Virus record (IMG/VR): IMGVR_UViG_3300044796_000401
Reading direction: 5' to 3' (one strand)
Source: a virus
Lineage: Duplodnaviria; Caudoviricetes
DNA: 64,000 nt
In this document: in pieces, positions 1,089-62,967 of the stretch
How positions within the stretch are numbered: the first letter of the stretch is position 1
How the letters are laid out: every line of letters starts with the position of its first letter
Notes under the pieces: model-generated
The model's input: only the letters and a program-made list of their open reading frames with translations
The model's database searches: none
Told to the model about the DNA's origin: nothing
Made by a program: the position numbers and the translations under genes

Positions 1089-1760
1089 ATGAAAACAAAA
1101 AGCCCCAGCACCTATAAACCACTCAGTAGCATTTGGGAGGCGAATGATGCCACCCTGCTTGAAGAGATGTTTAGGTTCTATGCTGTAATCCCCCCTGAAC
1201 CCGTCTTGGATTCAACACACAATGCGGGGCGATTTTGGAAGGGATCGTCGAGAAACGTCGTTTCGATGGACATTGACCCGCAGCACAAGCCGATGCTTTT
1301 GATGGACAACCGCGAAATGCCGGGCGTGCCCGACGCCAGTTATGGAGCCGTGGTTTTCGACCCGCCGCATGTGGGGCCGCAGGGACGGGACAAAAGCAAG
1401 AAGCGTTTTGACATCGATTTCGGGGCCACAATGTTCAAGCTCGATGCCGAGCACGACTACAAACTGAGTTATTTGTACTCCCCGTTCCTCGTCCAAGCCA
1501 AGCGGGTCTTGAAGCCCGATGGCCTCCTGCTCGCCAAAATCACGGACATCGTAAGTGCCCATCGAAACAAGTGGGCGCATTGCGACTTCATGCGAATGGC
1601 CGAAGAGGCCGGATTCACGGTATGCGACCTCATCATCAAAGTCAGAAAGGGACCGATGCAATCTTCCACTTGGAAAACGGCCCACCATGCGCGAAAGCGG
1701 CATTGCTTCTGGATTGTATGCCGAAACGGGAATACCTGCGACCGAAAACCGTCATCTTGA
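1089..1760 (+). CDS. Putative DNA amino-methyltransferase (IS passenger)
   Basis: VVFDPPH (DPPY-like motif IV), SAM-binding-like VLDSTHNAG, and RVLKPDGLLLAKI; TATTAT -10 box 6 nt before the ATG. Confidence 0.6.
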   Translation: MKTKSPSTYKPLSSIWEANDATLLEEMFRFYAVIPPEPVLDSTHNAGRFWKGSSRNVVSMDIDPQHKPMLLMDNREMPGVPDASYGAVVFDPPHVGPQGRDKSKKRFDIDFGATMFKLDAEHDYKLSYLYSPFLVQAKRVLKPDGLLLAKITDIVSAHRNKWAHCDFMRMAEEAGFTVCDLIIKVRKGPMQSSTWKTAHHARKRHCFWIVCRNGNTCDRKPSS

Positions 1761-32186: not shown

Positions 32187-32216
32187 TTGACAGTTTTCCG
32201 GCTACCGCGGTATTAT
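32187..32216 (+). promoter_or_regulatory. Sigma70-type promoter of tRNA operon 1
   Basis: TTGACA-18-TATTAT. Confidence 0.8.
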
Positions 32217-32222
32217 ACAGAC

Positions 32223-32303
32223 ATGGTTCGCATACCCATATCGTCGTCATCCAGTAGCCCCTCAGGGGCGGGCGGCGGTGTGCGCGATACCTTCGAAGAT
32301 TAA
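32223..32303 (+). CDS. Leader peptide of the Ser/Ile tRNA operon (MVRIPISSSSSSPSGAGGGVRDTFED)
   Basis: Leaderless ATG; codons ATA CCC ATA TCG TCG TCA TCC AGT AGC. Confidence 0.75.
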   Translation: MVRIPISSSSSSPSGAGGGVRDTFED

Positions 32304-32326
32304 GAGAGCACACAGAAGCAGTAAGC

Positions 32327-32360
32327 GCCGCCAGACAGTTTTGGCGGCTTTTTTGTTTTT
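32327..32360 (+). terminator. Intrinsic terminator/attenuator upstream of tRNA-Ser
   Basis: GCCGCCA/TGGCGGC stem plus U tract; left arm complementary to leader segment GGCGGCG (32271-32277). Confidence 0.8.
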
Positions 32361-32363
32361 AGC

Positions 32364-32455
32364 GGAGACGTGGGTGAATTGGCAAAACCACCACACTGCT
32401 AATGTGGGGCTTCCAGAGATGGGGCATCCGGGGTCGAGACCCGGCGTCTCCGCCA
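32364..32455 (+). tRNA. tRNA-Ser(GCT)
   Basis: GGAGACG/CGTCTCC acceptor, CT-GCT-AA loop, long variable arm, G73-CCA. Confidence 0.9.
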
Positions 32456-32464
32456 AGTTTAAGC

Positions 32465-32556
32465 AGTCCCGTAGTTTAACGGTAAAACAGCGGTCTTATA
32501 AGCCGCAAGCTCTCGATTGGAGCGCGTTGAAGGTTCGAATCCTTCCGGGACTACCA
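32465..32556 (+). tRNA. tRNA-Ile(TAT) with a long variable arm
   Basis: AGTCCCG/CGGGACT acceptor, CT-TAT-AA loop, TTCGAAT, A73-CCA. Confidence 0.8.
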
Positions 32557-32560
32557 GTTT

Positions 32561-32642
32561 GGGGACGTGGCTGAGTGGCTTAAGGCGCACACTTGGAAAG
32601 CGTGAAAGCGTGCCGTGGGTTCGACTCCCACCGTCCCCGCCA
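32561..32642 (+). tRNA. tRNA-Ser(GGA)
   Basis: GGGGACG/CGTCCCC acceptor, TT-GGA-AA loop, G73-CCA. Confidence 0.85.
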
Positions 32643-32653
32643 AAGTTGAATAC

Positions 32654-32748
32654 GGCGAGTTGGCTCAGTGGCTACAGCACCCGCCTCGAAAGCGGGCAAA
32701 TGTCGGTGATCCCGGCATACGGGGGTTCGAGTCCCTCACTCGCCGCCA
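32654..32748 (+). tRNA. tRNA-Ser(CGA)
   Basis: GGCGAGT/ACTCGCC acceptor, CT-CGA-AA loop, long variable arm, CCA. Confidence 0.9.
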
Positions 32749-32799
32749 AAATTGTGAATGTAAGGATTGAACTATCAACTCCTATGTATGGAGGCATTT

Positions 32800-33498
32800 A
32801 TGGTAGTTCATACGGTGTATAAAACCACAAACTTGGTCAACACTTGTTTTTACATAGGCATGCATAAAACGGCAAATCCGAACGACTCGTATTTGGGGTC
32901 GGGCACGGTGATAAAACGGGCGATCAAGAAACATGGTGCAGATAGGTTCAAAAAAGAAGTTCTGTTCGTCTTTCTAACCGCAAAAGAGGCCGCGGACAAA
33001 GAAGCTGAACTGTTGTTAGCTGAGAAAGTCAGCCCGCTTTGCTACAACTTGCACGAGGGCGGTAGCGGGGGTTTTGAATACATTAACAAGCACTATGCTC
33101 ATATGAAGCGTAAGTTGTTTAAGAAGGCTGAAATCGTTAGGCTAGAAAAGTTAAGGACCGATCCCGAGTTTCGCAAACGCGTTGGTGAACGAATCAGTAA
33201 GGCCCAACGCAAGAAATACAAAAGTGACCCAGAATTTCTGGAAGCCGCCAGAAGAAGAGTTTTGCTGCTTCAGCCGTCAGCCGTGGAGGTTTGGCGTGGA
33301 CAGAAGCACACTAAAGAGACCAGAAAAATTCTCAGCGACAACCACCGGGGGGAGCGGAATTCAATGTTTGGAATGCATTGGATGTATAATGATGACACCC
33401 AACAGTCGAAGCGGTTTCCTAAAAATGAAACAACAGCACAGCAACAGGTAGGATGGCAGTTGGGAAGAAAATTCTACGGAAGAGTGGCCGAACGGTAA
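32800..33498 (+). CDS. GIY-YIG (Seg-like) homing endonuclease with a NUMOD3-type region
   Basis: VYKTTNLVN..FYIGMH......YLGSG; GQKHTKETRKILS; 3' end overlaps tRNA-Ser(TGA). Confidence 0.85.
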   Translation: MVVHTVYKTTNLVNTCFYIGMHKTANPNDSYLGSGTVIKRAIKKHGADRFKKEVLFVFLTAKEAADKEAELLLAEKVSPLCYNLHEGGSGGFEYINKHYAHMKRKLFKKAEIVRLEKLRTDPEFRKRVGERISKAQRKKYKSDPEFLEAARRRVLLLQPSAVEVWRGQKHTKETRKILSDNHRGERNSMFGMHWMYNDDTQQSKRFPKNETTAQQQVGWQLGRKFYGRVAER

Positions 33499-33568
33499 GG
33501 CATCCGCCTTGAAAGCGGACGATGCCTTGAAAGGGTTATGGGGGTTCGAATCTCCCCCTCTTCCTCCA
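33478..33568 (+). tRNA. tRNA-Ser(TGA)
   Basis: GGAAGAG/CTCTTCC acceptor, CT-TGA-AA loop, long variable arm, CCA. Confidence 0.88.
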
Positions 33569-36465: not shown

Positions 36466-38601
36466 GTGGAATCTATGGGTCCTCGTCAAGCGCCAGAAAT
36501 CTACGAACTGATCGTCGGGAAAACGGATTACCCGTACCTCGACGGGACCGTCCATCTCTTCGTCGGCGGCTCCGCGGCGCACGGCGCGAAGCTCGAAGGC
36601 AAAAGCGACTTCGACCTGCTCGGCGTGTACGTCCCACCGATAGAGGAGGTCGTCGGCGTCCGCGGCGTGGACGAGCATTGGGTCTGGAGCACGGCGGGGG
36701 ACAAGGTGCGCAACGGCGCGAACGACATCGACATGAACATGTACTCCCTTCGCAAATGGGCAAGGATGGCAACATCCGGCAACCCGAGCGCCATCGAGTT
36801 CATGTTCGTGGACAACCTCGCTCCCAAGAGCGACATCTGGGAGCGCTTCGTCACGCCGAACATCCCCGTGTTCCTGAGTTCCCACGCCGGGCTGCACTTC
36901 CAGAAATTCTGCGAGCACATGCTCCGCACGCTCAAGGGCGAGGGGCAGGGCAAGCGTGGAAAGCGGCTGGACTTGATCGCCGAGTTCGGCTACGATTGCT
37001 ACGACGACAGTCAAACCGAGTTTCTTACCGACCGTGGTTGGAAGAAATTCGATGGTGTGTTAAATTCAGACAAGGTAGCTGCTTTCGACCCGCTCACAGG
37101 CGAGATCAAGTTTGAAACTCCGCTATCTAAAATAGACAAACATTACTCTGGGTTGTTGTATGAAGTAGAGCCCCAGCTTACACGATGCGTAGTAACTCCC
37201 AACCACAACATGGCAGTTTCTCCAGCTTCCCGCAACCCAAAAACAAACTTCAGCACTAAATTTGATCCCGGCAAGGCAGACTGGGGTCTTGTTCCTATTT
37301 CAAGTTTAATGTCCGGGGTCAAAAAGCGTGTAGCGCGTTCTATGTACCACATTCGCCGCGCAGGATCGAGACGGGATCAAAGATTTGATGTTCAATCCGA
37401 ATACCTGCTCTTGGCTGGGATGTACTTGTCCGAAGGTTCAATCGCCTTTTACAAAAGTAAAACGGGGAAAAAAGTGAAAGCCGCCCGTCTCACCCGGACT
37501 AAAGAAGGCAAAGACGAATACTATAAGTATGCCGATAGGCTGATTCGTTTATTCCAAGGGCACCGCCATGACTATCCCCGTAAGCATGTTGAGTGTGAAA
37601 CCACTTGGGTTTTTCCTCGTAAAATTGCTAGACAGATATACGCAGATTTTGGACATCATAAGGAAAAGCACCTTCCCGATTGGTGTTTTCGGTTATCATA
37701 CGATCAGGCATGGGAGATGTGGAACGGCTTGTGCTTGGGGGATGGAACTCGCATTAAAACAAAGCGGAGCGTAGGGCAGGGCGTTGTATTTTACACATCT
37801 GTCAAGAATCTGGCGGATGACATACATGCAATGATGGTTTCATCCGGGCACATATGCGTGGTAAACGGACCATATGGCCCCTATGGATACGAACCGAAAA
37901 GCGCGTTCGGTGATTGTGCGATGTACCAAGTATATCGTCCAGACGATCAAAATCCGTATCGATGTGTGAATTTTAGAAGCGGTATCTTGAAAACCGGAGA
38001 GGAACCGGACCTCGAAAAGGGATACTCTATCAAAGAATCCCTCGTAGAAAACCGTCGAATCGTTTGCTTTGAAATGCCATCTGGCACGCTTATAACTCGC
38101 AGTAATGGACGACCCGCATTCCAAGGCAATAGCAAGGCAGCTATGCACCTGATCCGCGTGCTCAACGAGGGCATCGAGCTCATGGAGACGGGCAGGATCA
38201 CGCTGCCCCGCCCCGAGAAGGAGCACCTGATCGACATACGGAAGGGCAAAGCCGGAACCCTGAAGGACATCGAGGACATCGCGCAAGCGCTTTTCACCCG
38301 GCTCGAATCCGCACGGCTGGCCTCCGCCCTGCCACCGGCGGTCGATCTCGGCAAGGTCAGCGGCATCATTACCTCCGCGCAGGAGACGGTCTGGAACCAA
38401 AGCAACGAGGTCTTGCAGATCATAAGCAAGGCGTTCTCCGTATCAGCGTGGTGGATCGCCTCGCACAACAAAGCCAACCCGACGCCCTTGACAGGGAAAT
38501 GGGATGAGTGGCAAGATCAGAAGTGGGTCGAGAGGGAGATGGTCAAGGTGGCGATGGACCTCCACGAGAAGGAGAAGGCCGATGCCAAAAAAGGCGTCTA
38601 A
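36466..38601 (+). CDS. Pol-beta-superfamily nucleotidyltransferase (Nuc-transf/RlaP-like) with an intein
   Basis: GSAAHG...KSDFDLLGVY, SLRKW....GNP..IE, GYD|SKAAMHLIR, ITLPRPE..L..IRKG. Confidence 0.8.
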   Translation: MESMGPRQAPEIYELIVGKTDYPYLDGTVHLFVGGSAAHGAKLEGKSDFDLLGVYVPPIEEVVGVRGVDEHWVWSTAGDKVRNGANDIDMNMYSLRKWARMATSGNPSAIEFMFVDNLAPKSDIWERFVTPNIPVFLSSHAGLHFQKFCEHMLRTLKGEGQGKRGKRLDLIAEFGYDCYDDSQTEFLTDRGWKKFDGVLNSDKVAAFDPLTGEIKFETPLSKIDKHYSGLLYEVEPQLTRCVVTPNHNMAVSPASRNPKTNFSTKFDPGKADWGLVPISSLMSGVKKRVARSMYHIRRAGSRRDQRFDVQSEYLLLAGMYLSEGSIAFYKSKTGKKVKAARLTRTKEGKDEYYKYADRLIRLFQGHRHDYPRKHVECETTWVFPRKIARQIYADFGHHKEKHLPDWCFRLSYDQAWEMWNGLCLGDGTRIKTKRSVGQGVVFYTSVKNLADDIHAMMVSSGHICVVNGPYGPYGYEPKSAFGDCAMYQVYRPDDQNPYRCVNFRSGILKTGEEPDLEKGYSIKESLVENRRIVCFEMPSGTLITRSNGRPAFQGNSKAAMHLIRVLNEGIELMETGRITLPRPEKEHLIDIRKGKAGTLKDIEDIAQALFTRLESARLASALPPAVDLGKVSGIITSAQETVWNQSNEVLQIISKAFSVSAWWIASHNKANPTPLTGKWDEWQDQKWVEREMVKVAMDLHEKEKADAKKGV
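36997..38130 (+). mobile_element. Intein (378 aa) with a LAGLIDADG-type endonuclease
   Basis: Starts CYDDSQTEFLTDRGW, ends TLITRSNGRPAFQGN followed by Ser+1; LAGMYLSEGS and GLCLGDG motifs. Confidence 0.88.
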
Positions 38602-40847: not shown

Positions 40848-41115
40848 CTGCCAGTTGCTGTTGACCGAAATCTTGCTTCGGGCAAAATTCTAGGGAATCA
40901 CTGTATAATTCCCACAAGATAAGAAAGGACTTACGATGAGAAGAGAAGGAAACAGCATTGTGTGGTCGCCAGAGATTGAAAGGCAAATGCTGAAAAACAT
41001 AGCGGATGAACGAAAATGCCCGTGCAATGGGAGTAAAAACTGCCCGGACTGCCAGTTGCTGTTGACCGAAATCTTGCTTCGGGCAAAATTCTAGGGAATC
41101 ACTATATAATTCCCA
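40848..41115 (+). repeat. 67-bp direct repeat (40848-40914 and 41049-41115, one mismatch)
   Basis: CTGCCAGTTGCTGTTGACCGAAATC...GGGAATCACT(G/A)TATAATTCCCA; flanks a 52-aa ORF at 40936-41094. Confidence 0.9.
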
Positions 41116-41138: not shown

Positions 41139-41819
41139 ATGACTGAACGAACAGTTGAGCAAGCGAAGGCGGATTGCATCGCGGCATGGGCCGCGCACCC
41201 GGAGGCGACGCACGGCTGGTGTGTGCATCATGAGGTAGAGATGGAAGAACTAACCGAGCCGATTGAAAACCGAATCCGCTACATTGTAGAAAACAAAGCG
41301 GAAGAAGAAATCGTTACACGCTTGGATAATCTGCGCCCCGTGCTATCCAAAGTTCCCATATTGACACAGAAGGCCTATGATGAAGCCACCGCCCCGGCAT
41401 GGAAGGCCTACCGCGAAGCCACCGCCCCGGCATGGAAGGCCTACGACGAAGCCACCGCCACGGCACGGAAGGCCCACGACAAAACCATTGCCTCGGCATG
41501 GAAGGCCTATGACGAAGCCACCGCCCCGGCATGGAAGGCCTACGACGAAGCCACCGCCACGGCACGGAAGGCCCACGACAAAACCATTGCCTCGGCACAG
41601 AAGGCCTACGACGAAACCGCCGCCCCGGCATGGAAGGCCTACGACGAAGCCACCGCCCCGGCATGGAAGGCCTACCGCGAAGCCATCGCCCCGGCAGAGA
41701 AGGCCTATGGCAAAGCCATCGCCCCGGCACGGAAGGCCTACGGCGAAGCCATCGCCGCGGCGCACAAGCAGGATGTCCCGGACCACACGTGGGACGGAAA
41801 AACCATTTTCCCGAAATAA
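41139..41819 (+). CDS. Protein with 11-aa Ala-rich tandem repeats (KAYDEATAPAW)
   Basis: About 12 imperfect 33-bp repeats in frame; AAGGA Shine-Dalgarno. Confidence 0.75.
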   Translation: MTERTVEQAKADCIAAWAAHPEATHGWCVHHEVEMEELTEPIENRIRYIVENKAEEEIVTRLDNLRPVLSKVPILTQKAYDEATAPAWKAYREATAPAWKAYDEATATARKAHDKTIASAWKAYDEATAPAWKAYDEATATARKAHDKTIASAQKAYDETAAPAWKAYDEATAPAWKAYREAIAPAEKAYGKAIAPARKAYGEAIAAAHKQDVPDHTWDGKTIFPK

Positions 41820-42256: not shown

Positions 42257-42669
42257 TGGCAAAAGAGACAGCGAAAAAGAACCACGGGGAGAGAAAAGAC
42301 CCCGGCATGGCGGACAAATTCCGGAACCTGCGCAGGGAGACGAACGCCCTCCGGCCGAAGCAGCGCTGGGTCGGCGAGCACGCCAACCTCGGCCAAGCCG
42401 CCGGGCACTGGGAGCGGTAGTTCGGGGGAACGGAATGATCGAACGATTTTTCAACTGGCTCAGAGCCGCGTTGACATCCGATATGCCACCGGAGCCGGGG
42501 GCCGATCCCAACCCGAATTGCATGGGGCACGGCGCGAACAACGTTCCCGGCTGCATCTGCCGCCTGCTTTACTACCGCCAGTGGTTGGGCCACGACTAGC
42601 GGAAACCCGTTGAAACCGCTGGTTTTAGCCCTGGCCTGATCTTTCTTGAAATATTTTCGACAATTCCCC

Positions 42670-42697
42670 TTGATTTTCCCGCTGTCCGGTGTATTAT
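42670..42697 (+). promoter_or_regulatory. Promoter of tRNA operon 2
   Basis: TTGATT-16-TATTAT. Confidence 0.65.
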
Positions 42698-42725
42698 GTA
42701 GGTGCACAGTATCGTGGTTAAGAAC

Positions 42726-42830
42726 ATGACCCTCAGGAAATCCAATTCGACGAGAGCCGCCCGAAAGCATCAGGGCGACGGCCAGCGGTGGAATACCGCG
42801 GCGGGTCTGTTCGATGGGTGGGACGAGTAA
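42726..42830 (+). CDS. Leader peptide of tRNA operon 2 (MTLRKSNSTRAARKHQGDGQRWNTAAGLFDGWDE)
   Basis: Contains AGG, AAA, AAT, AGA, CGA, AAG, CAT, CAG, CAG, CGG, TGG, AAT; an in-frame GTG at 42714 after AGGTG is an alternative start. Confidence 0.75.
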   Translation: MTLRKSNSTRAARKHQGDGQRWNTAAGLFDGWDE

Positions 42831-42855
42831 GAAGAGTCCCAATCCAAAGAATTCC

Positions 42856-42895
42856 AAACCCGCCGACCGAGAAGGTTCGGCGGGTTTTTTGTTTT
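42856..42895 (+). terminator. Intrinsic terminator/attenuator upstream of tRNA-Trp
   Basis: AAACCCGCCGA/TCGGCGGGTTT stem plus U tract; ACCCGCCG is perfectly complementary to leader segment CGGCGGGT (42799-42806). Confidence 0.85.
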
Positions 42896-42969
42896 AGGGG
42901 AGTCGTCCAACGGTAGGACTCTGGTCTCCAAAACCAGGTATGGCGATTCAAATTCGTCCTCCCCTGCCA
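42896..42969 (+). tRNA. tRNA-Trp(CCA)
   Basis: AGGGGAG/CTCCCCT acceptor, CT-CCA-AA loop, G73-CCA. Confidence 0.88.
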
Positions 42970-43010
42970 AAGTTTAAGCCGTGTCCGTGAGTTAGCCGGG
43001 CACGCAGGGT

Positions 43011-43086
43011 GTGGCCGTGGCAACTATTGGCATGTTGCACCTGTCTGTGGAACAGGGTCTTGTGGGTTCAATTCCCACCGGTCACC
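43011..43086 (+). tRNA. tRNA-His(GTG)
   Basis: GTGGCCG/CGGTCAC acceptor, CT-GTG-GA loop, C73; CCA and G-1 not encoded. Confidence 0.8.
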
Positions 43087-43131
43087 CTTTCGTGACTTCC
43101 TGAGTATTAAGTAGGGTGCTCAGGAGGGTTC

Positions 43132-43974
43132 ATGATGTTTTACACGGTGTACAAGACGGTTAATTTGCTGAACGGTGAGTACTACTTCGGGGTTCACAAG
43201 ACTGAGAATCCCAAGGATGTTTATCTCGGTTCCGGGACATACATCAAGCGAGCCGTTGCCAAGTGCGGGGAACAGAACTTCCGCAAGGAAGTGCTGTTCA
43301 CCTATCTCGATGCGAAGTCGGCGTTCGGTAAGGAGGACGAACTGATTCAAAGTTATCGCGGACGTGATTCGCTGTGTAAGAATCTGAGAAAGGGCGGTAG
43401 CGGTGGGTTTGATTGGATCAATGAGAAGGGATTAAACGGCACCAAAGTAGCTAGGGCGGCTGGGGTAGAAAAAAGACGGAGAGATACTTTTCGTAAACGA
43501 TGGGAGAATGATCCAGCGTTCAGGAAAAAGCTTTCGAAAAACGGACGAAGAGCCCTAAAATGTGTTTCCGATGAAACCAGAAAAAGGAATCTTCTTTTAG
43601 GCGCGAAAGCTTGGAAAGGACAACACCACACTAAAGAGTTTCGAGAACGAAAAAGCCAAGAACAACGCGGAATTAACAATTCCCAATTTGGCTGCCGATG
43701 GATGAGAAAGGAAGGGGTTGTACGGAAGGTTGCTCGAACTGAAGTTGAGAGGGCTTTAACTGAGGGATGGTTATTTGGAAAAGTCGCACCTAAAGTACGA
43801 CAAAAACAAACTAGAAAACCAACATTAAACGAGCAAGCCCCCAAAGGAACCCGTTGGTGTTCTAGTCACAAACAATTTTTGGATGTTCAATTGTTTCACG
43901 GGAAATATAAATATTGTAAGGCATGCCGAAGAACTCAAAGAATTATTCGGCGTCAGCGGTTAGGACATTGGTAA
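43132..43974 (+). CDS. GIY-YIG (Seg-like) homing endonuclease
   Basis: VYKTVNLLNGEYYFGVH......YLGSG; GQHHTKE; paralogue of 32800..33498. Confidence 0.85.
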   Translation: MMFYTVYKTVNLLNGEYYFGVHKTENPKDVYLGSGTYIKRAVAKCGEQNFRKEVLFTYLDAKSAFGKEDELIQSYRGRDSLCKNLRKGGSGGFDWINEKGLNGTKVARAAGVEKRRRDTFRKRWENDPAFRKKLSKNGRRALKCVSDETRKRNLLLGAKAWKGQHHTKEFRERKSQEQRGINNSQFGCRWMRKEGVVRKVARTEVERALTEGWLFGKVAPKVRQKQTRKPTLNEQAPKGTRWCSSHKQFLDVQLFHGKYKYCKACRRTQRIIRRQRLGHW

Positions 43975-43981
43975 AAGTTTT

Positions 43982-44058
43982 GCGCCCGTAGCTCAATGGA
44001 TCAGAGCGTTCGGCTACGAACCGAAAGGCTGCGAGTTCGAGTCCCGCCGGGCGCACCA
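43982..44058 (+). tRNA. tRNA-Arg(ACG)
   Basis: GCGCCCG/CGGGCGC acceptor, CT-ACG-AA loop, CCA. Confidence 0.92.
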
Positions 44059-44079
44059 GATTTTTGAAGAATGGGTTTT

Positions 44080-44157
44080 GCGCCTGTAGCTCAGTTGGAG
44101 CAGAGCGTTCGCCTCCGAAGCGAAAGGTCGCGAGTTCGAGTCTCGCTAGGCGCACCA
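44080..44157 (+). tRNA. tRNA-Arg(CCG)
   Basis: GCGCCTG/TAGGCGC acceptor, CT-CCG-AA loop, CCA. Confidence 0.92.
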
Positions 44158-44162
44158 GATTT

Positions 44163-44254
44163 GAGTTCGGCCCTGTCGGCAACTGGACAGTCGGCTTCGC
44201 TACGAACGCCCAGCCCTTCGGGGAATGCAGGTTCGAGTCCTGTCACCCGTTCCA
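44163..44254 (+). pseudogene. tRNA-like element with an unpaired acceptor stem
   Basis: Intact T arm GCAGG-TTCGAGT-CCTGT, variable arm, D-like hairpin and CCA, but no 5' strand matching CACCCGT. Confidence 0.55.
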
Positions 44255-44258
44255 GTTT

Positions 44259-44334
44259 TGGGAAGTGGCGCAATTGGGAGCGCAGCGGGTTCTGAACCCG
44301 AAGGTTGTTGGTTCGAACCCAACCTTCCCAACCA
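44259..44334 (+). tRNA. tRNA-Gln(CTG)
   Basis: TGGGAAG/CTTCCCA acceptor, TT-CTG-AA loop, CCA. Confidence 0.85.
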
Positions 44335-44339
44335 AGTTT

Positions 44340-44414
44340 TGGGGTGTGGTCTAACGGTAAGGCACCGCACTGTTAATGCGGACGATGAAGGTTCGAGTCC
44401 TTCTGCCCCAGCCA
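44340..44414 (+). tRNA. tRNA-Asn(GTT)
   Basis: TGGGGTG/TGCCCCA acceptor, CT-GTT-AA loop, G73-CCA. Confidence 0.88.
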
Positions 44415-44432
44415 AGTTTTGAAGGGAGACTG

Positions 44433-44579
44433 ATGGGAACAGCTATTGCGGTGATTGCGAGTTTTATCTTGGGCGCTGTCATGGACCACTTCTTGGAAGC
44501 GCGAAGCGCCAAGGCCGTAACGACGGCGATCAAGCATTTGGAAGATAGCGTTGTGGCGGAGATACGGAAGTTGCGGTAA
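44433..44579 (+). CDS. Small single-TM protein (48 aa)
   Basis: GGGAG Shine-Dalgarno; MGTAIAVIASFILGAVM... Confidence 0.5.
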   Translation: MGTAIAVIASFILGAVMDHFLEARSAKAVTTAIKHLEDSVVAEIRKLR

Positions 44580-44590
44580 AAAGTTTCAGT

Positions 44591-44665
44591 TCCCCGTTAG
44601 CTCAGTGGCAGAGCGTTCGGCTGTTAACCGAAGTGTCGGGAGTTCGAATCTCTCACGGGGAGCCA
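44591..44665 (+). tRNA. tRNA-Asn(GTT)
   Basis: TCCCCGT/ACGGGGA acceptor, CT-GTT-AA loop, G73-CCA. Confidence 0.92.
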
Positions 44666-44671
44666 AGATTT

Positions 44672-44746
44672 GGGTCTGTAATTCAGCGGCAGAAAACCTC
44701 GCCCTTAACGAGGGGGCCGAGAGTTCGAGTCTCTCCAGACCCACCA
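44672..44746 (+). tRNA. tRNA-Lys(CTT)
   Basis: GGGTCTG/CAGACCC acceptor, CC-CTT-AA loop, CCA. Confidence 0.85.
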
Positions 44747-44783
44747 AATGCAGACTCTTATTATGAATTCAGTATTAAGAGTC

Positions 44784-45275
44784 ATGGAACAGGAAAAAGT
44801 ATGCTGCCGATGTAAGGCTCCTAAACCAGTTGACGCTTTTAACTGGAAAAATCGAGCTAAAGGAATTCGACAGAGTTTTTGTCGGACGTGTAAAAAGGAG
44901 TATCAAGGCACTTGGTATAAAAATCACAGAGACGAGCAACTAGCACGAATCCTAGCTAGAAAAACTCGTATTGTGAAAGAAAACCAAGATCGCATTTGGG
45001 TTTATTTGAAGGAACATCCATGCGTTGGCTGTCCTGAGAATGATCCGGTTGTTTTAGATTTTGACCATGTACGTGGGGCTAAAAGAGTGGAAATCTCTAC
45101 GATGTTAGCCCACGGATGTGCATGGAAAAGCATCTTGAAAGAGATAGCTAAATGCGAAGTTCGCTGTAGAAATTGCCATCATCGCCGACATGCGGTGGAA
45201 CTTGGCTCTTGGCGAGTAACGCAAGCTTCACAAGATTGCGCTCATAGCTCAACTGGGAGAGCAGGAGACTCTTAA
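44784..45275 (+). CDS. HNH homing endonuclease
   Basis: CCRC...CRTC Zn motif; CVGC...VLDFDHV...EIAKCEVRCRNCH; 3' end overlaps tRNA-Lys. Confidence 0.85.
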   Translation: MEQEKVCCRCKAPKPVDAFNWKNRAKGIRQSFCRTCKKEYQGTWYKNHRDEQLARILARKTRIVKENQDRIWVYLKEHPCVGCPENDPVVLDFDHVRGAKRVEISTMLAHGCAWKSILKEIAKCEVRCRNCHHRRHAVELGSWRVTQASQDCAHSSTGRAGDS

Positions 45276-45313
45276 TCTCAAGGTTGCAGGTTCGACCCCT
45301 GCTGGGCGCACCA
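45238..45313 (+). tRNA. tRNA-Lys(CTT)
   Basis: GCGCTCA/TGGGCGC acceptor, CT-CTT-AA loop, CCA. Confidence 0.9.
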
Positions 45314-45362
45314 GATTAAACTGGAAGGACTTTTGAGTTCTTCTGGTAGAAGGGAAGTTGTT

Positions 45363-45941
45363 ATGGGAACTGACACACTAGTGCTTGACATGACGGGAAC
45401 CCCCATCGGGTTCGTCGGCTGGCAGAAAGCCGTGACCATGGTGTGGAAAGATCGTGCTATGGTCATGGATGAAGATTCGGAAAAAATTTTGAGGTCGCCT
45501 TCGTTCGAGATGGGCATGCCCACGGTCATCCGTGCGAGGAACTGGGTGCGCCGCCGTCGGAAGACCGCGGTCCCGTTCTCCCGCCGCAACGTTGCGGTCA
45601 GGGACAACAGCGAGTGCCAGTACTGCGGCAAGCTGCTTCACCTGCCGGAGTACACGCTGGATCACGTGGTCCCGAGGGTCCAGGGCGGATCGAGCAACTG
45701 GAAGAACCTCGTGCTGGCATGCATCAGGTGCAACAAGCACAAGTCCGGGAGCACCCCGGAACAGGCCGGAATGCGTTTGCGCAGGATGCCGTTTGAGCCG
45801 AAGCCGGACGACCCGAAGTACAACTTCAAGCTTCGGATCAAGAAGATGCATCCGAGTTGGCGGCCGTATGTGGACGGCGGCTGGCTGTATGCCGAGAAGG
45901 CCGCCTACGCGTATTGGAACGTGGAACTCTCGGAGAAATAG
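45363..45941 (+). CDS. McrA-like HNH endonuclease
   Basis: FSRRNV..RD...CQYCG...TLDHVVPR.QGG.SNW.NLV.AC..CN..K...TPEQAGM.L. Confidence 0.88.
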   Translation: MGTDTLVLDMTGTPIGFVGWQKAVTMVWKDRAMVMDEDSEKILRSPSFEMGMPTVIRARNWVRRRRKTAVPFSRRNVAVRDNSECQYCGKLLHLPEYTLDHVVPRVQGGSSNWKNLVLACIRCNKHKSGSTPEQAGMRLRRMPFEPKPDDPKYNFKLRIKKMHPSWRPYVDGGWLYAEKAAYAYWNVELSEK

Positions 45942-46183
45942 GTTCCACGGGAGATCGGCTCAACGGAAGGTCAGGATTGAGCCGGACCATCGTGGTCGCC
46001 GCCAGGCGATGCCGGTGGCAGGACGGGAGAGGGCGATGTGGAGGCCCTCTCCCGTACGGAATTCGGTCGGTAGCTACGGCTCCCGGCGATAGCCCGAGGC
46101 GCTTAGTACAGGCGTTCGGGCGGGGAAGCTCTCTTGTCCCCCATCCTGCGGTTGAGAGTCCGTGGCCACGGATCGCAGGAAGC
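45942..46183 (+). ncRNA. Candidate multi-hairpin non-coding RNA inside the tRNA operon
   Basis: At least five long GC-rich hairpins, e.g. perfect 12-bp ACGGGAGAGGGC/GCCCTCTCCCGT, CGGCTCAA/TTGAGCCG, TCCTGCG/CGCAGGA. Confidence 0.5.
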
Positions 46184-46185
46184 AC

Positions 46186-46261
46186 GGCCCCATAGTTCAA
46201 ACGGACAGAACGCTAGTTTCCTAAACTTGAAATCCCGGTTCGAGTCCGGGTGGGGCCGCCA
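46186..46261 (+). tRNA. tRNA-Arg(CCT)
   Basis: GGCCCCA/TGGGGCC acceptor, TT-CCT-AA loop, CCA. Confidence 0.85.
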
Positions 46262-46280
46262 GATTTTGATTGAAGGATGT

Positions 46281-46355
46281 TGCTTTGTCGTCTAATCGGC
46301 AGGACACAGGTCTCTGGAACCTGTTATAATGGTTCGAGTCCATTCAAAGCAGCCA
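46281..46355 (+). tRNA. tRNA-Gln(CTG)
   Basis: TGCTTTG/CAAAGCA acceptor, CT-CTG-GA loop, G73-CCA. Confidence 0.88.
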
Positions 46356-46621
46356 ATTTTATGACGAAGGCGAAGTCGCTCAAACAAGTCGTTGCAACCG
46401 CCCGCAAGAACGGGAAGATGAGGATGTCGCAGGCGTATTTCGACCTGATGCTTGAGGGGATGCAGATGCCCGAAGAGCTCGGTAAAGCAGCGGTAGAGGC
46501 GGCAAAAAGGAAGAAGTGATGCAGGCTCTCGCACAACTCGGTGTCGCAACGGGATTCGTCGTGATCCTTGTCGGGTTGCTCTTTCTTCCCAACCTCAGAC
46601 GAAAACGTTGATCCCACCTCC

Positions 46622-46698
46622 GCTCCCGTCGTCCAATGGAATAAGGACGCTAGTCTTCTAAACTAGGAATATGGGTTCAAGTCCCATCGGGAGCCCCA
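46622..46698 (+). tRNA. tRNA-Arg(TCT)
   Basis: GCTCCCG/CGGGAGC acceptor, CT-TCT-AA loop, CCA. Confidence 0.88.
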
Positions 46699-46708
46699 AT
46701 CTTTCCGT

Positions 46709-46784
46709 GGGCTGCTAATTCAATTGGCTAGAAGCGCAGACCTTTAATCTGTTAATTTCGGTTCGAGTCCGGAGCGGCCCACCA
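46709..46784 (+). tRNA. tRNA-Lys(TTT)
   Basis: GGGCTGC/GCGGCCC acceptor, CC-TTT-AA loop, CCA. Confidence 0.82.
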
Positions 46785-46884
46785 ATTCTTTATATTTAGA
46801 CTATCAACCATTCCATTGGGGCGTATAATGGTTACAACCGGGGTCTGAAACCCGACTTCCGCCGCCGTAAGTGGAGGCACTTCC

Positions 46885-47082
46885 ATGACTCAATTTATCG
46901 TTTGCACGATTTGCTTTGTGGCTGGCGGGATCGTCGGCGCGGGCGGCTGGGCGGCTTTCCAAGCGAAGGTCAAGTCCGACGCATCGGCCCTTTTGGCTTC
47001 CGCGAAGGCGGAAGTAACCAAGACCGCTCCGAGCCTCGCAGCCGTCGGCGCTTGGATCGACGCGGCCATCGCGAAATTGTAA
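46885..47082 (+). CDS. Small membrane protein
   Basis: GGAGG Shine-Dalgarno; N-terminal TM helix. Confidence 0.55.
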   Translation: MTQFIVCTICFVAGGIVGAGGWAAFQAKVKSDASALLASAKAEVTKTAPSLAAVGAWIDAAIAKL

Positions 47083-47447
47083 ATCGGGGCTTGTTTGCCG
47101 GGGGCTGGCCGGAGCCAGCCCCCGATTTTATCCCCCGCCGGAAGTCCGTCTTTTTTCCTCCTCCGAGTATTATCCGGTATGTTCCAGCTTCCCGAATTGC
47201 CGCCCTGCCCCTACCACGCCGCCGAGCCCCCCGAGGAGCTTGCCGCCCACAAATGCTATGATTACCAGCCCAAGCGGTTCCACGAACTGATGGACGAGAC
47301 TCGGGAAGAGACGTTTTCGCAAGTGCCCGAGATCGTGCCCAAGATCATCGAGACGCCGGAGGGGGAAGAATGAAACCGTTTCCGCCCTCCCCCACGTCTA
47401 ACAACAAGATTGGTGAATACGGGTTTACTAGATAGCGAGGAACACAT

Positions 47448-60230: not shown

Positions 60231-60759
60231 TGTTTCCGTTTTCTAAATATGACAGGAAATCGTGCATTTACTATCGATTTATTCTTTAATGCAGCTAACT
60301 CCGTAACAATCAACTGAGGTAGCCATTTTACCCGGAGCGCTGTATACTAGGGGCGTGGACGGTGGACGGAGTTCAACCAGCGGGGCGCTGATCGCAAAGA
60401 GGAAAAGGAGAAACACCATGAACATCGGAACGAAGGTCACTCACAAATTCAACGGCGAGATGGTTGGCGAAGTCGTCGCCATCGGGACCGGGCCGTTCGC
60501 AGGCAAGGCGAAGGTCCAGATCGAGGTATACTTAGGATCAGGAGACAACGATGAAAGCCAAAGATAAGACAAAAGAGTTGGACGCATTTGTCGAGCGACT
60601 GCGAGCCGCGTTTGACAAACTTGACGGTCGTGAAGCCGAGAAACTGTTGAAGTCACTTGACCGCACAATCATCCGGACAATCGAAATTAAAGAGGGCAAG
60701 ATGACCGATTTCCCATATTGACTGGCTGACAGTTTGTTAGTATTATAGTGATCCTAACT

Positions 60760-62967
60760 ATGAACACTTCGACAAATCCAGCAATCGCCCACAGTGCCCA
60801 ACCAAAGGAGGGCATTCCAGAGCAGTCGTATGCGAACCACATCTCCAACGTGGTGTCCAACACGACTAGCAAGTGCGAGGACATGCTGAAGTACCATATC
60901 GCTGGTGCAAGGTTTTTGTCTTCTGCGAAGGCTGCCAGCGAATTTCACGACCTCGGCAAGCTCGAACCGGAAAACCAAGAAATCCTCCAAGGCCGCAAGA
61001 AGGGGAAGCTGATCAATCACGTAGACGCAGGTGTGGCACACCTTGTTGCGAACGGGCTTTGGGAGGCGGCCATAGCGGTAAATGCCCATCATTGGGGCTT
61101 GCCAGATTTGGTTGAGGAAGAAGAGAAGGGGCGTCGAAACGCCTGCCTGCGGGACGAAACAATTTTTGAACATACGAATCGCAGCATGGAGGACTTGATT
61201 AAGCGCCACGGCGAGAACGGGTTTTCTGTGTCTCTCCAGCCGGGTAACAACCCCCACTTGTCCGGCTTGGAGCGTCGGCTGCTGCTCTCTTGCCTCGTAG
61301 ACGCCGACCACTCCGACACCGGGCACAATTACCCCCAATACTTTCCTCCGCAAGTACCCGAATGCGGGTGGGAAGAGCGGCTCGCGGCGCTGAATGCCTA
61401 CGTCAATGGCTTGCCGAAAGGCTCCAAGAGCGACAAATTGCGCAGGGAGATCGCCGATGCTTGCCGCAGGGCCGAACTGGTGCCGCTCAGCACGCTGGAC
61501 AGCGCGGTAGGCACGGGCAAGACGTTATCGGCGATGGCGTACCTTCTGCGGCTGGCCATCCGGTTCAACCTCCGGCACATCTTCGTCGTGCTGCCGTACT
61601 GCAACATCATCCGCCAATCGGTAAAGGAGTATCGAAAGGCGCTGACCTTGCCCGGCGAAGACCCGAAATCGGTGGTGGCGGAGCACCACCACCTGATCGA
61701 ATTCGAACCCGTGCAGCAGCGGCATTTGACCACGCTTTGGAACGCCCCCATCATCGTCACCACGGCGGTGCAATTCTTCGAGACCCTGACCGCCGCCAAG
61801 ACCAGCCGCCTGCGCAAGCTGCACGAATTGCCGGGTTCGGCAGTATTTATTGATGAGGCCCACGCCGCCATGCCTGTCAAACTCTGGCCGTTCATGTTCG
61901 ATCAGATGAGGGAACTTGCCGAAGCATGGTCGTGCAAGTTCGTGCTGGGCTCCGGATCGTTGACCAAGTTTTGGGAGAGCCAGCGCATCATGGGCGAAGG
62001 AGTCGCCTTGCCGGACATTCCTGACCTAGTGCCTAACGAAATCAGGCGCGAGAGCGCGGAAGCGGAAAAAGAACGAACCGTCCTCAGGACGAAAAAGCAA
62101 GCCATGAGCTTGGATGATTTGACGCAATGGCTTATGGGCTTCAACGGCGCACGGCTCGTAGTCATGAACACCCTCAAGAACGCCGCCAAGCTCGCCCAAG
62201 CGCTCAGGGCTCAGGGGGTACAGGCATTGCACGTCTCCACCGCCCTCGCCCCGGCAGACCGCGAAAAAGTGCTGGAACAGGTCGAGAAGCGGCTCAACAA
62301 TGACCGAAACTTTGTCTTGGTCGGCACAAGCTGCATCGAAGCCGGATGGAACGTTTCGTTCGATGTCGGCTTTCGGGAGCGCAGCAGCCTCGTGAGCCTT
62401 GAGCAGATTCGCGGGCGAGTCAAGCGGCACGGAGGCGACGGCCCCCCGGCCGAGGTTTGGGATTTCAAGGCTGACGAGGACGACGATTCCTTTAGCCTCA
62501 ACCCCGAGTTTGCGAATAGCTCAGTCGTGCTAGGAAGCATGTTTGAAGATGGAAGCTTCGAGCAGGGGATGCACGCCGCAGACTTGGTGTTCCGAGCCTT
62601 GGAGGAAGAATGGAAATTGCAGCCCAAAGACGCGTGGGTGGCAACTATCCGTGAGGTGGAGAAAAGTGGGTGTTATAACAGCAGGAACCCCGAGAAAATA
62701 TTCACTGTAAGCCGAATGGCTCGGCTGATCACGCAGGAAACCCTGACCGTTGTGACCGATCCCGTCCTCGCCAAAAAGATGAAGGATGGGAAGCAGGTCA
62801 CTCCGCAGGAAGTGCAGCGGCACAGCGTCCAGATTTGGGAGCAGAAATTCGAGAAGCTGCATTTGGAGAAAAAGCTGGCTCTGATTGCCGACGACGTTTA
62901 CGAGTGGACGCTGGGTTATGACCCGGATTTTCTGGGCGTGATGGAGGGATTGCTGCCTCTCATTTAG
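60760..62967 (+). CDS. cas3: CRISPR-associated helicase/nuclease Cas3
   Basis: HDLGK, AHHWGL, SCLVDADHSDT (HD domain); GTGKT, DEAH, QIRGRVKR (SF2 helicase); TTGACT-17-TATTAT promoter. Confidence 0.92.
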   Translation: MNTSTNPAIAHSAQPKEGIPEQSYANHISNVVSNTTSKCEDMLKYHIAGARFLSSAKAASEFHDLGKLEPENQEILQGRKKGKLINHVDAGVAHLVANGLWEAAIAVNAHHWGLPDLVEEEEKGRRNACLRDETIFEHTNRSMEDLIKRHGENGFSVSLQPGNNPHLSGLERRLLLSCLVDADHSDTGHNYPQYFPPQVPECGWEERLAALNAYVNGLPKGSKSDKLRREIADACRRAELVPLSTLDSAVGTGKTLSAMAYLLRLAIRFNLRHIFVVLPYCNIIRQSVKEYRKALTLPGEDPKSVVAEHHHLIEFEPVQQRHLTTLWNAPIIVTTAVQFFETLTAAKTSRLRKLHELPGSAVFIDEAHAAMPVKLWPFMFDQMRELAEAWSCKFVLGSGSLTKFWESQRIMGEGVALPDIPDLVPNEIRRESAEAEKERTVLRTKKQAMSLDDLTQWLMGFNGARLVVMNTLKNAAKLAQALRAQGVQALHVSTALAPADREKVLEQVEKRLNNDRNFVLVGTSCIEAGWNVSFDVGFRERSSLVSLEQIRGRVKRHGGDGPPAEVWDFKADEDDDSFSLNPEFANSSVVLGSMFEDGSFEQGMHAADLVFRALEEEWKLQPKDAWVATIREVEKSGCYNSRNPEKIFTVSRMARLITQETLTVVTDPVLAKKMKDGKQVTPQEVQRHSVQIWEQKFEKLHLEKKLALIADDVYEWTLGYDPDFLGVMEGLLPLI

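Follow-up and report, generated by a model that had tools for sequence, protein, structure and literature searches.

A phage tRNA operon preceded by a putative leader-peptide attenuator with codons for all ten downstream tRNA types

The stretch of DNA considered here (the window: 64,000 nucleotides (nt), IMG/VR virus record IMGVR_UViG_3300044796_000401, Duplodnaviria; Caudoviricetes) belongs to an uncultured peat and pond jumbo phage of about 55% GC, and carries two tRNA operons. Each is preceded by a promoter, a short open reading frame (ORF) and an intrinsic terminator. The leader of the second, operon 2, is likely to be a ribosome-mediated (leader-peptide) transcription attenuator, sensing the speed at which the codons of the downstream tRNAs are decoded; the element ahead of operon 1 appears to be a sister module.

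Operon 2 follows a gene ending at 42599. Between that gene and the leader ORF is a sigma-70-type promoter (42670-42697, plus strand; TTGATT-16 nt-TATTAT, 9 of 12 consensus matches), kept in the one relative described below (locus L001). The leader ORF, also on the plus strand, has 34 codons if read from an ATG at 42726 and 42 if read from an in-frame GTG at 42702, with a TAA stop at 42828-42830. Between it and the tRNAs lies an intrinsic terminator, a 13-bp GC-rich stem (42856-42887) followed by a T6-G-T4 tract to 42895, and tRNA-Trp starts at 42896, 1 nt past the T-tract. Promoter, ORF, terminator and tRNA start span at most 230 nt, and the leader module itself is compact (about 190 nt) and self-contained. 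The array behind it (42896-46784, plus strand) holds 13 tRNAs of 10 anticodon types by ARAGORN and Rfam: Trp CCA, His GTG, Arg ACG, Arg CCG, Gln CTG (two), Asn GTT (two), Lys CTT (two), Arg CCT, Arg TCT and Lys TTT. A scan for strong internal plus-strand terminators in operon 2 found none before 47099, where an 11-bp stem with 10 GC pairs (47099-47124, plus strand) is the likely end-of-operon terminator.

The most distinctive property of the leader is its codon content. Counted from the ATG at 42726, codons 4-23 read AGG AAA tcc AAT tcg acg AGA gcc gcc CGA AAG CAT CAG ggc gac ggc CAG CGG TGG AAT, with those matching the downstream tRNAs in capitals; within a putative sensor tract at 42705-42794 (plus strand), 15 of 30 codons are cognate to these tRNAs and 10 of 10 types are represented. 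The original prediction, made from the DNA letters with no database search, had listed these leader codons and anticodons and claimed that the former cover all ten types; sequence reading, ARAGORN and Rfam find the lists exact and the coverage complete. Random sets of 33 codons, drawn from the codon usage of 52 long ORFs of the window and scored with strict one-to-one decoding classes, reach all ten types with a probability of 2e-4; among 12,814 windows of 33 codons in real genes, full coverage never occurs. Such coverage is not common in random ORFs of this kind either: among 480 short ORFs (20-45 codons, whole window, both strands), the leader is the sole one to reach 10 of 10. Full coverage is frame-specific, the other five frames over the leader DNA covering 4-7 types. 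The four Arg codons, each used once as had been noticed, fall in four different decoding classes (P = 0.03).

The leader can also adopt mutually exclusive pairings. A complementarity reported in the original prediction is perfect: CGGCGGGT (42799-42806) can pair along its whole length with ACCCGCCG (42858-42865), giving an 8-bp helix. Four regions can be distinguished, all on the plus strand: region 1 (GAACA.GACCC, 42722-42732); region 2, the antiterminator 5' strand (CGGCGGGT..GTTC, 42799-42812); region 3, the terminator 5' arm (42856-42868), which doubles as the antiterminator 3' strand at 42858-42865; and region 4, the terminator 3' arm with the T6-G-T4 tract (42874-42895), ending 1 nt before tRNA-Trp. 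In the minimum-energy fold of the full-length leader, region 1 pairs with region 2 (42803-42812) and regions 3 and 4 form the terminator. When the RNA is cut before the terminator 3' arm, which mimics the transcript at the moment of the polymerase's choice, the folding model instead pairs region 2 with the terminator 5' arm. This 2:3 pairing consists of GGCGGGT/ACCCGCC (CGGCGGGT/ACCCGCCG in the two-sequence consensus) and GTTC/GAAT, stacked on an apical hairpin (42815-42846, plus strand) with the leader stop codon in its loop. Duplex energies are -15.8, -18.7 and -23.6 kcal/mol for 1:2, 2:3 and 3:4, respectively, a ranking that resembles that of the trp leader.

The effect of a ribosome was modeled by masking a 28-nt footprint, codon by codon, and counting the specific 2:3 pairs in the nascent RNA (a looser measure, whether the left arm was paired with anything, was dropped as too noisy). 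Expected 2:3 pairs are 11-12 bp with the ribosome at codons 1-29, 7 at codon 30 (TGG) and 0-4 at codons 31-40, so that the potentially "hungry" codons lie where a stalled ribosome would leave the antiterminator intact. The non-cognate tail of the ORF (Thr, Ala, Ala, Gly, Leu, Phe, Asp, Gly and further codons) encodes the antiterminator 5' strand, which accounts for the leader codons already noticed to have no match in this operon.

Assuming that transcription starts at or near 42702, a ribosome would initiate on the probably leaderless GTG and translate 42 codons, the first 30 of which include one or more for each of the ten tRNA types. If every one of these matching codons is read fast, it would be at codons 31-40 while the polymerase is still making 42856-42895, covering 42799-42812; the 13-bp terminator would then form, and transcription would stop 1 nt before tRNA-Trp. 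With a lag at any hungry codon, the antiterminator hairpin (42799-42865) would form first, sequestering the terminator 5' arm and allowing the polymerase to continue into the 13 tRNA genes; tRNA-Trp would be freed from the leader by RNase P. A shortage of any one of the ten tRNAs would thus raise output (OR logic), and accumulation of phage tRNAs would lower it (negative feedback). In short, given the codon match and the switchable terminator, the phage probably makes the operon 2 tRNAs only when the matching codons are read slowly. What we infer in this scheme is where transcription begins, that the ORF is translated, which way and how strongly output responds, the kinetics and the OR behavior. 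The contigs of one peat metatranscriptome cover the region at even, low depth, also upstream of the promoter, with a gap at 42883-43366; contigs of this kind do not resolve transcript ends.

A module of the same design precedes operon 1 (32187-32360, plus strand throughout), with a promoter, a leaderless ORF, regions 1 and 2, and a terminator. Its promoter (32187-32216; TTGACA-18 nt-TATTAT) has the same -10 hexamer, TATTAT, as that of operon 2. The leader ORF (32223-32303; 26 codons) includes ATA twice and seven Ser codons, reading ATA CCC ATA TCG TCG TCA TCC AGT AGC CCC TCA before a non-cognate tail, and the array downstream (32364-33568) consists of Ser GCT, a UAU-anticodon tRNA, Ser GGA, Ser CGA and Ser TGA. 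Cognate codons number 9 of 25, versus 2.0 expected (P = 8e-5). Cross-scoring of each leader against the tRNAs of the other operon gives low values (1-4 types, 2-3 codons). In this module the Ser codons, hungry codons in their own right, make up region 1 (32237-32248), and CATATCGTCGTC forms 12 bp with GGCGGCGGTGTG. The alternative partner of region 2 (32271-32284) is the CGCCGCC of the terminator arm (terminator at 32327-32348), stacked on GTGTGC/GCACAC, and the model gives 10-13 bp of 2:3 pairing with the ribosome stalled at codons 1-13, and none with it at codons 16-22. Because the promoter type, the -10 hexamer and the terminator tail are common to both, the two modules are, judging by sequence, probably paralogous, with codon tracts each fitted to its own cargo. 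The "independent second instance" of the original prediction is therefore confirmed as to its design and its different codon content, and qualified as to its independence, which resides in the differing codons.

The UAU-anticodon tRNA of operon 1 (32465-32556; L002 1598-1690, minus strand, in the relative) is unusual in its own right. ARAGORN labels it tRNA-Ile (TAT), an identity that is a prediction, yet at 92 nt, and with its long variable arm, it has the class II shape of Ser, Leu and Tyr tRNAs. It has an A73 discriminator and an encoded CCA, lies among four class II Ser tRNAs, and is kept in the relative.

Searches of IMG/VR and the JGI metagenomes gave a single relative, a 69-kb contig (loci L001 and L002) that CheckV rates as 30% complete, implying a genome of about 230 kb. 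It was found by a protein-anchored scan of IMG/VR, and a metagenome scan with a leader-peptide alignment returned the same contig only; BLAST against GenBank phages gave matches at the level of tRNAs only. The operon 2 region is 71% identical overall between the two phages, with 97-100% identity over 42720-42809, including an unbroken 75-nt identical run that spans the sensor tract and region 2 (region 2 being 100% conserved up to 42807). The downstream tRNA-Trp and tRNA-His, at 67-94%, fall below the leader. The C-terminal tail of the leader peptide is divergent in L001 and has a 3-nt insertion, with the frame, the apical hairpin and the stop in its loop all retained; the hairpin has an altered sequence with three compensatory pairs. 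In the terminator arm a C-to-T change turns a G-C pair of the 2:3 helix into G-U, and an A-to-G change adds one 2:3 pair. The operon 1 region is 62% identical, with 90-93% in the Ser tract and regions 2 and 3, and 47-60% in the first tRNA. The corresponding leader of the relative (MGYIVRISSSSSSSSGAGGGVRVYTTD) has in-frame indels that keep the ORF and a Pro-to-Ser change that adds a hungry codon, and the upper stem of its terminator differs yet remains able to pair.

Modules of similar design are found in unrelated phages. A generic scan for the terminator-tail pattern returned mostly noise and one case, a low-GC IMG/VR contig (L046, 2284-2460, minus strand) in which TTGACA-17-TATAAT is followed after 6 nt by the short ORF ATG AAA CTT CTC TCA TCA TTG TAT CTA AGC TTA GGA AGC CTA CCA TGA (MKLLSSLYLSLGSLP). 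Behind this leader are tRNAs Tyr GTA, Leu TAG, Leu TAA and Ser TGA, for which 7 of 14 codons are cognate and 4 of 4 types represented (P = 3e-4). The antiterminator strand, TGAGCGG, overlaps the stop codon, with the terminator downstream, and the model predicts a terminator probability of 0.00 when the ribosome stalls at codons 6-8. The Caulobacter phage phiCbK (NC_019405) has annotated terminators directly before its tRNA blocks. Its unit B (gp335) has 23 of 44 cognate codons (P = 9e-5; 10 of 10 types), unit C has 11 of 31 (8 of 8 types), and unit A (Glu/Asp) shows no enrichment (P = 0.47). Units B and C resemble the operon 2 module in architecture and logic, but belong to another lineage with other leader sequences and tRNA sets, and share no sequence homology with it.

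How common is this arrangement? In an unbiased survey of 99 IMG/VR phage tRNA arrays (loci L130-L249; arrays defined by gaps of at most 400 nt, a definition that would miss operon 2), a terminator-like hairpin lies within 70 nt upstream of the first tRNA in 25 of 99, versus 4% of random positions. Most of these terminator-preceded arrays lack a codon-matched ORF, suggesting that the terminators have other uses, or simply end upstream genes. Match rates overall are close to those for decoy tRNA sets, with 5-8% of decoys reaching P < 0.01 under best-ORF selection, and strongly codon-matched leaders precede only about 2 of the 99 arrays. These are L242 (about 1258-1434, plus strand; P = 1e-6), with TTA five times, AGA four times, CTA once and CTT twice before Leu-TAA, Arg-TCT and Leu-TAG tRNAs, and L222 (P = 4e-6), with the matched ORF upstream of 5265 (minus strand). 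L242, L222 and L046 are unrelated to the window. The look at other phage tRNA leaders proposed with the original prediction thus yields L046, L242, L222 and phiCbK units B and C, at a low frequency in the unbiased sample: the design is recurrent across unrelated phages but uncommon. A broader reading, towards which we lean only slightly, is that unrelated phages carry a modular attenuator, reprogrammable by rewriting its leader codons, that gauges decoding speed for a chosen codon set, switches on the matching tRNAs as a supply under feedback control, and may serve as a sensor of host tRNA depletion, with at least two such modules, differing in their codon programs, in one jumbo phage.

The attenuator reading of the original prediction is supported by its anatomy, by the frame-specific codon match, by the exclusive pairings, by the conservation of the leader, and by recurrence; several points nevertheless weigh against it. 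The coverage statistic was chosen post hoc, with the data already seen, and in the test against codon usage that had been proposed earlier, lenient U34 wobble (A- and G-ending codons both read) gives a coverage P of 0.003-0.01, versus the strict value above. By plain count, cognate codons are modestly in excess (16 of 41 where 9.4 are expected; P = 0.015): what stands out is that every type occurs, not that a few types abound. There are 1-3 codons per tRNA type where classical attenuators have tandem runs. The Trp codon TGG (codon 30) sits at the edge of the permissive zone, and most phage tRNA arrays have no codon-matched leader. There is also a single relative in the collections searched, apparently with the same tRNA types (its Arg-TCT gene a 36.8-bit Rfam match only, with no ARAGORN call). 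The modest count, the post hoc statistic and the rate of low P values among decoys would all suit a chance or compositional coincidence, with the terminator belonging to the unit of the upstream gene and the short ORF being spurious. That is very unlikely in view of the strict coverage probability and the first rank among 480 ORFs, the separate enrichment in operon 1, the placement of a promoter between the upstream gene and the ORF, the long identical run within a much less conserved region, and the recurrence in unrelated phages.

The start codon raises difficulties of the same kind. No Shine-Dalgarno sequence precedes the ATG at 42726, whereas the neighboring gene at 43132 has AGGAGG, and the GTG at 42702 is only 5 nt past the -10 box. 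In L001 the codon homologous to this GTG is ATG, and start codons lie 5-8 nt past the -10 box in five modules (operon 1, operon 2, L002, L046 and phiCbK unit C), the sister module having an ATG 7 nt past TATTAT in both window and relative, and L046 and phiCbK unit C an ATG at 7-8 nt. The missing Shine-Dalgarno sequence, the closeness of the GTG to the -10 box, the ATG in the relative and the like spacing elsewhere make a leaderless ORF of 42 codons from GTG 42702 the more likely arrangement. The 34-residue leader first proposed is correct as a count from ATG 42726, and is probably too short. The upstream start lengthens the sensor tract by CAC, AAG and AAC. A start codon retained as GTG or ATG, a frame that survives indels in relatives, and the leaderless placement in five modules are indirect pointers to translation of the ORF.

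Equilibrium folding of the full operon 2 leader is likewise unhelpful to the attenuator interpretation, in that the terminator is preferred (P = 0.92) for every ribosome placement; the operon 2 switch must then be kinetic. Nascent RNA without a ribosome also forms the antiterminator, predicting a default ON state, unlike trp superattenuation. With thermodynamic models indecisive for operon 2, and a ribosome at the stop codon letting the antiterminator partly re-form (6.4 expected bp in the model), a reversed polarity might be entertained, in which efficient leader translation leads to read-through (as positive feedback or a translation check) and stalling to termination. The geometry makes this improbable. 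In operon 2, 26 nt lie between the leader stop codon and the terminator stem downstream, too far for a terminating ribosome to melt the terminator; translation would act only via the antiterminator, and the modules in general have stop codons 23-32 nt upstream of their terminator stems. A late ribosome covers the antiterminator 5' strand; in operon 1, where region 1 consists of the hungry codons, its release makes region 2 available for antitermination; and in L046 the modeled stalls abolish the terminator.

Another possibility is that promoter, ORF and terminator are a separate small gene, for a micropeptide or a small RNA of about 190 nt, with the tRNAs supplied by constitutive leak-through and the codon match having no regulatory meaning. 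In its favor are a strong terminator that prevails in every equilibrium fold, a leader more stably folded than shuffled sequences (z = -4.9), and published cases, rnTrpL and peTrpL, of attenuator RNAs and leader peptides that can act in trans (PMC6614838, PMC7298713). Such a gene would leave unexplained why the one ORF in 480 should match its own tRNA set, and likewise the matches of operon 1, L046, phiCbK and L242 to tRNA sets that differ from one to the next. Among relatives the C-terminal part of the peptide varies freely, in contrast to the codon tract and pairing strands, where the nucleotide sequence itself is kept, and there is no space for a further promoter between the terminator and tRNA-Trp. 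We regard the separate gene as unlikely, and attenuation as the better account of the leader.

All of the defining features of a leader-peptide attenuator that can be read from sequence are present in operon 2, outside any curated family. Both leaders score below the Rfam gathering thresholds (best scores: Trp_leader 15.8 bits against 41, Leu_leader 14 against 50, PyrG_leader 20.3 against 65), and these sub-threshold matches all lie over the terminator only. The amino-acid attenuators of E. coli and Salmonella (trpL, hisL, pheL, thrL for Thr and Ile, ilvL for Ile, Val and Leu) have the same promoter-proximal, codon-enriched short ORF, and the same alternative 1:2, 2:3 and 3:4 pairings leading to an intrinsic terminator, with a lagging ribosome favoring the antiterminator and, in several, more than one input per leader. 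They differ in cargo, which is biosynthetic enzymes there and tRNA genes here, whose product would directly replenish the charged-tRNA supply that is sensed. The operon 2 leader further differs in having ten codon classes with 1-3 codons each, in being probably leaderless, in its predicted ON state without translation, and in lacking similarity to them in sequence or Rfam model. Also near are the leaderless polycysteine short-ORF attenuators of mycobacteria, which control Cys-metabolism protein genes on the bacterial chromosome (bioRxiv 10.1101/834739). These have the same leaderless 5' short ORF whose codon content ties downstream expression to the supply of one amino acid or tRNA; operon 2 is set apart by phage tRNA genes as cargo and by an intrinsic terminator with a defined antiterminator.

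T-box riboswitches, found upstream of translation-related genes, also couple tRNA status to a choice between terminator and antiterminator, and direct sensing of tRNAs by codon-anticodon pairing, with no ribosome, would be a further way to use the leader codons. T-boxes bind one uncharged tRNA directly, involve neither ribosome nor ORF, and control aminoacyl-tRNA synthetase and amino-acid genes. No T-box match was found at E <= 10 in either leader, nor at gathering score in the window, and no other curated leader family matches. Ten specifiers in a 90-nt tract, in one conserved frame with a start codon at the 5' end of the transcript, fit translation rather than a Stem I with a specifier loop, and direct sensing is extremely unlikely here. 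A full-text literature search, with most subscription journals outside its reach, gave no account of leader-peptide attenuation of tRNA genes. The E. coli pheV gene, considered as a possible precedent, has no attenuator-like leader: in MG1655 the promoter abuts the tRNA, with neither ORF nor terminator.

To our knowledge, tRNA genes have been treated as constitutive or controlled by growth rate, and phage tRNA arrays as simple supplements to codon usage or as decoys for anticodon nucleases. If the attenuator reading is correct, this would be the first case we know of in which the trp/his logic controls tRNAs themselves, forming a direct feedback loop in which slow decoding leads to more tRNA, and hence to fast decoding and termination. 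It would account for the strong terminators immediately upstream of some phage tRNA blocks, and show how jumbo phages avoid overproducing dozens of tRNAs. It would also offer a route to a phage response, on a scale of minutes, to tRNA cleavage or to a mismatch with the host tRNA pool; Arg, Lys, Asn and His tRNAs, all supplied by operon 2, are targets of known anticodon nucleases. Since it can be read from its codons, the module might also find synthetic use in sensing how much decoding capacity is available for chosen codons.

Homing-endonuclease-type ORFs lie amid the tRNA genes of both operons. Operon 2 has a GIY-YIG-like ORF (43132-43974), a Cys-rich HNH-like ORF (44748-45275) and an HNH ORF (PF01844; 45333-45941), and operon 1 has an ORF with a weak SegE-GIY-YIG match (below the Pfam cut-off) plus NUMOD3 (32767-33498). 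They would share transcripts with the tRNAs, and so would also come under attenuator control. In a variant strain (run X17), the differences are mainly within the HNH gene (45476-45900).

Between the two operons is a 711-amino-acid protein (36466-38601) with an RlaP domain (PF10127), a nucleotidyltransferase of an RNA repair pathway, which may link it to tRNA repair; phiCbK also has an annotated tRNA-splicing ligase. Nearer to operon 2 is a protein of tandem KAYDEATAPAW-like repeats (41139-41819), ahead of which the promoter-like site TTGACC-16-CAAAAT occurs twice, 201 nt apart (40861-41089), suggesting a duplicated segment. Further downstream (60748-62967) is a 739-amino-acid helicase with ResIII/DEAD and a Cas3-like C-terminal domain (PF22590), beside which no cas genes were noticed. 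Sequence of the operon 2 region (42400-47200) is present in 20 public runs of peat, pond and viral metagenomes; the phage occurs in 13 or more such studies, and in one peat run the contig word depth is about 4000, indicating that the phage can be very abundant.

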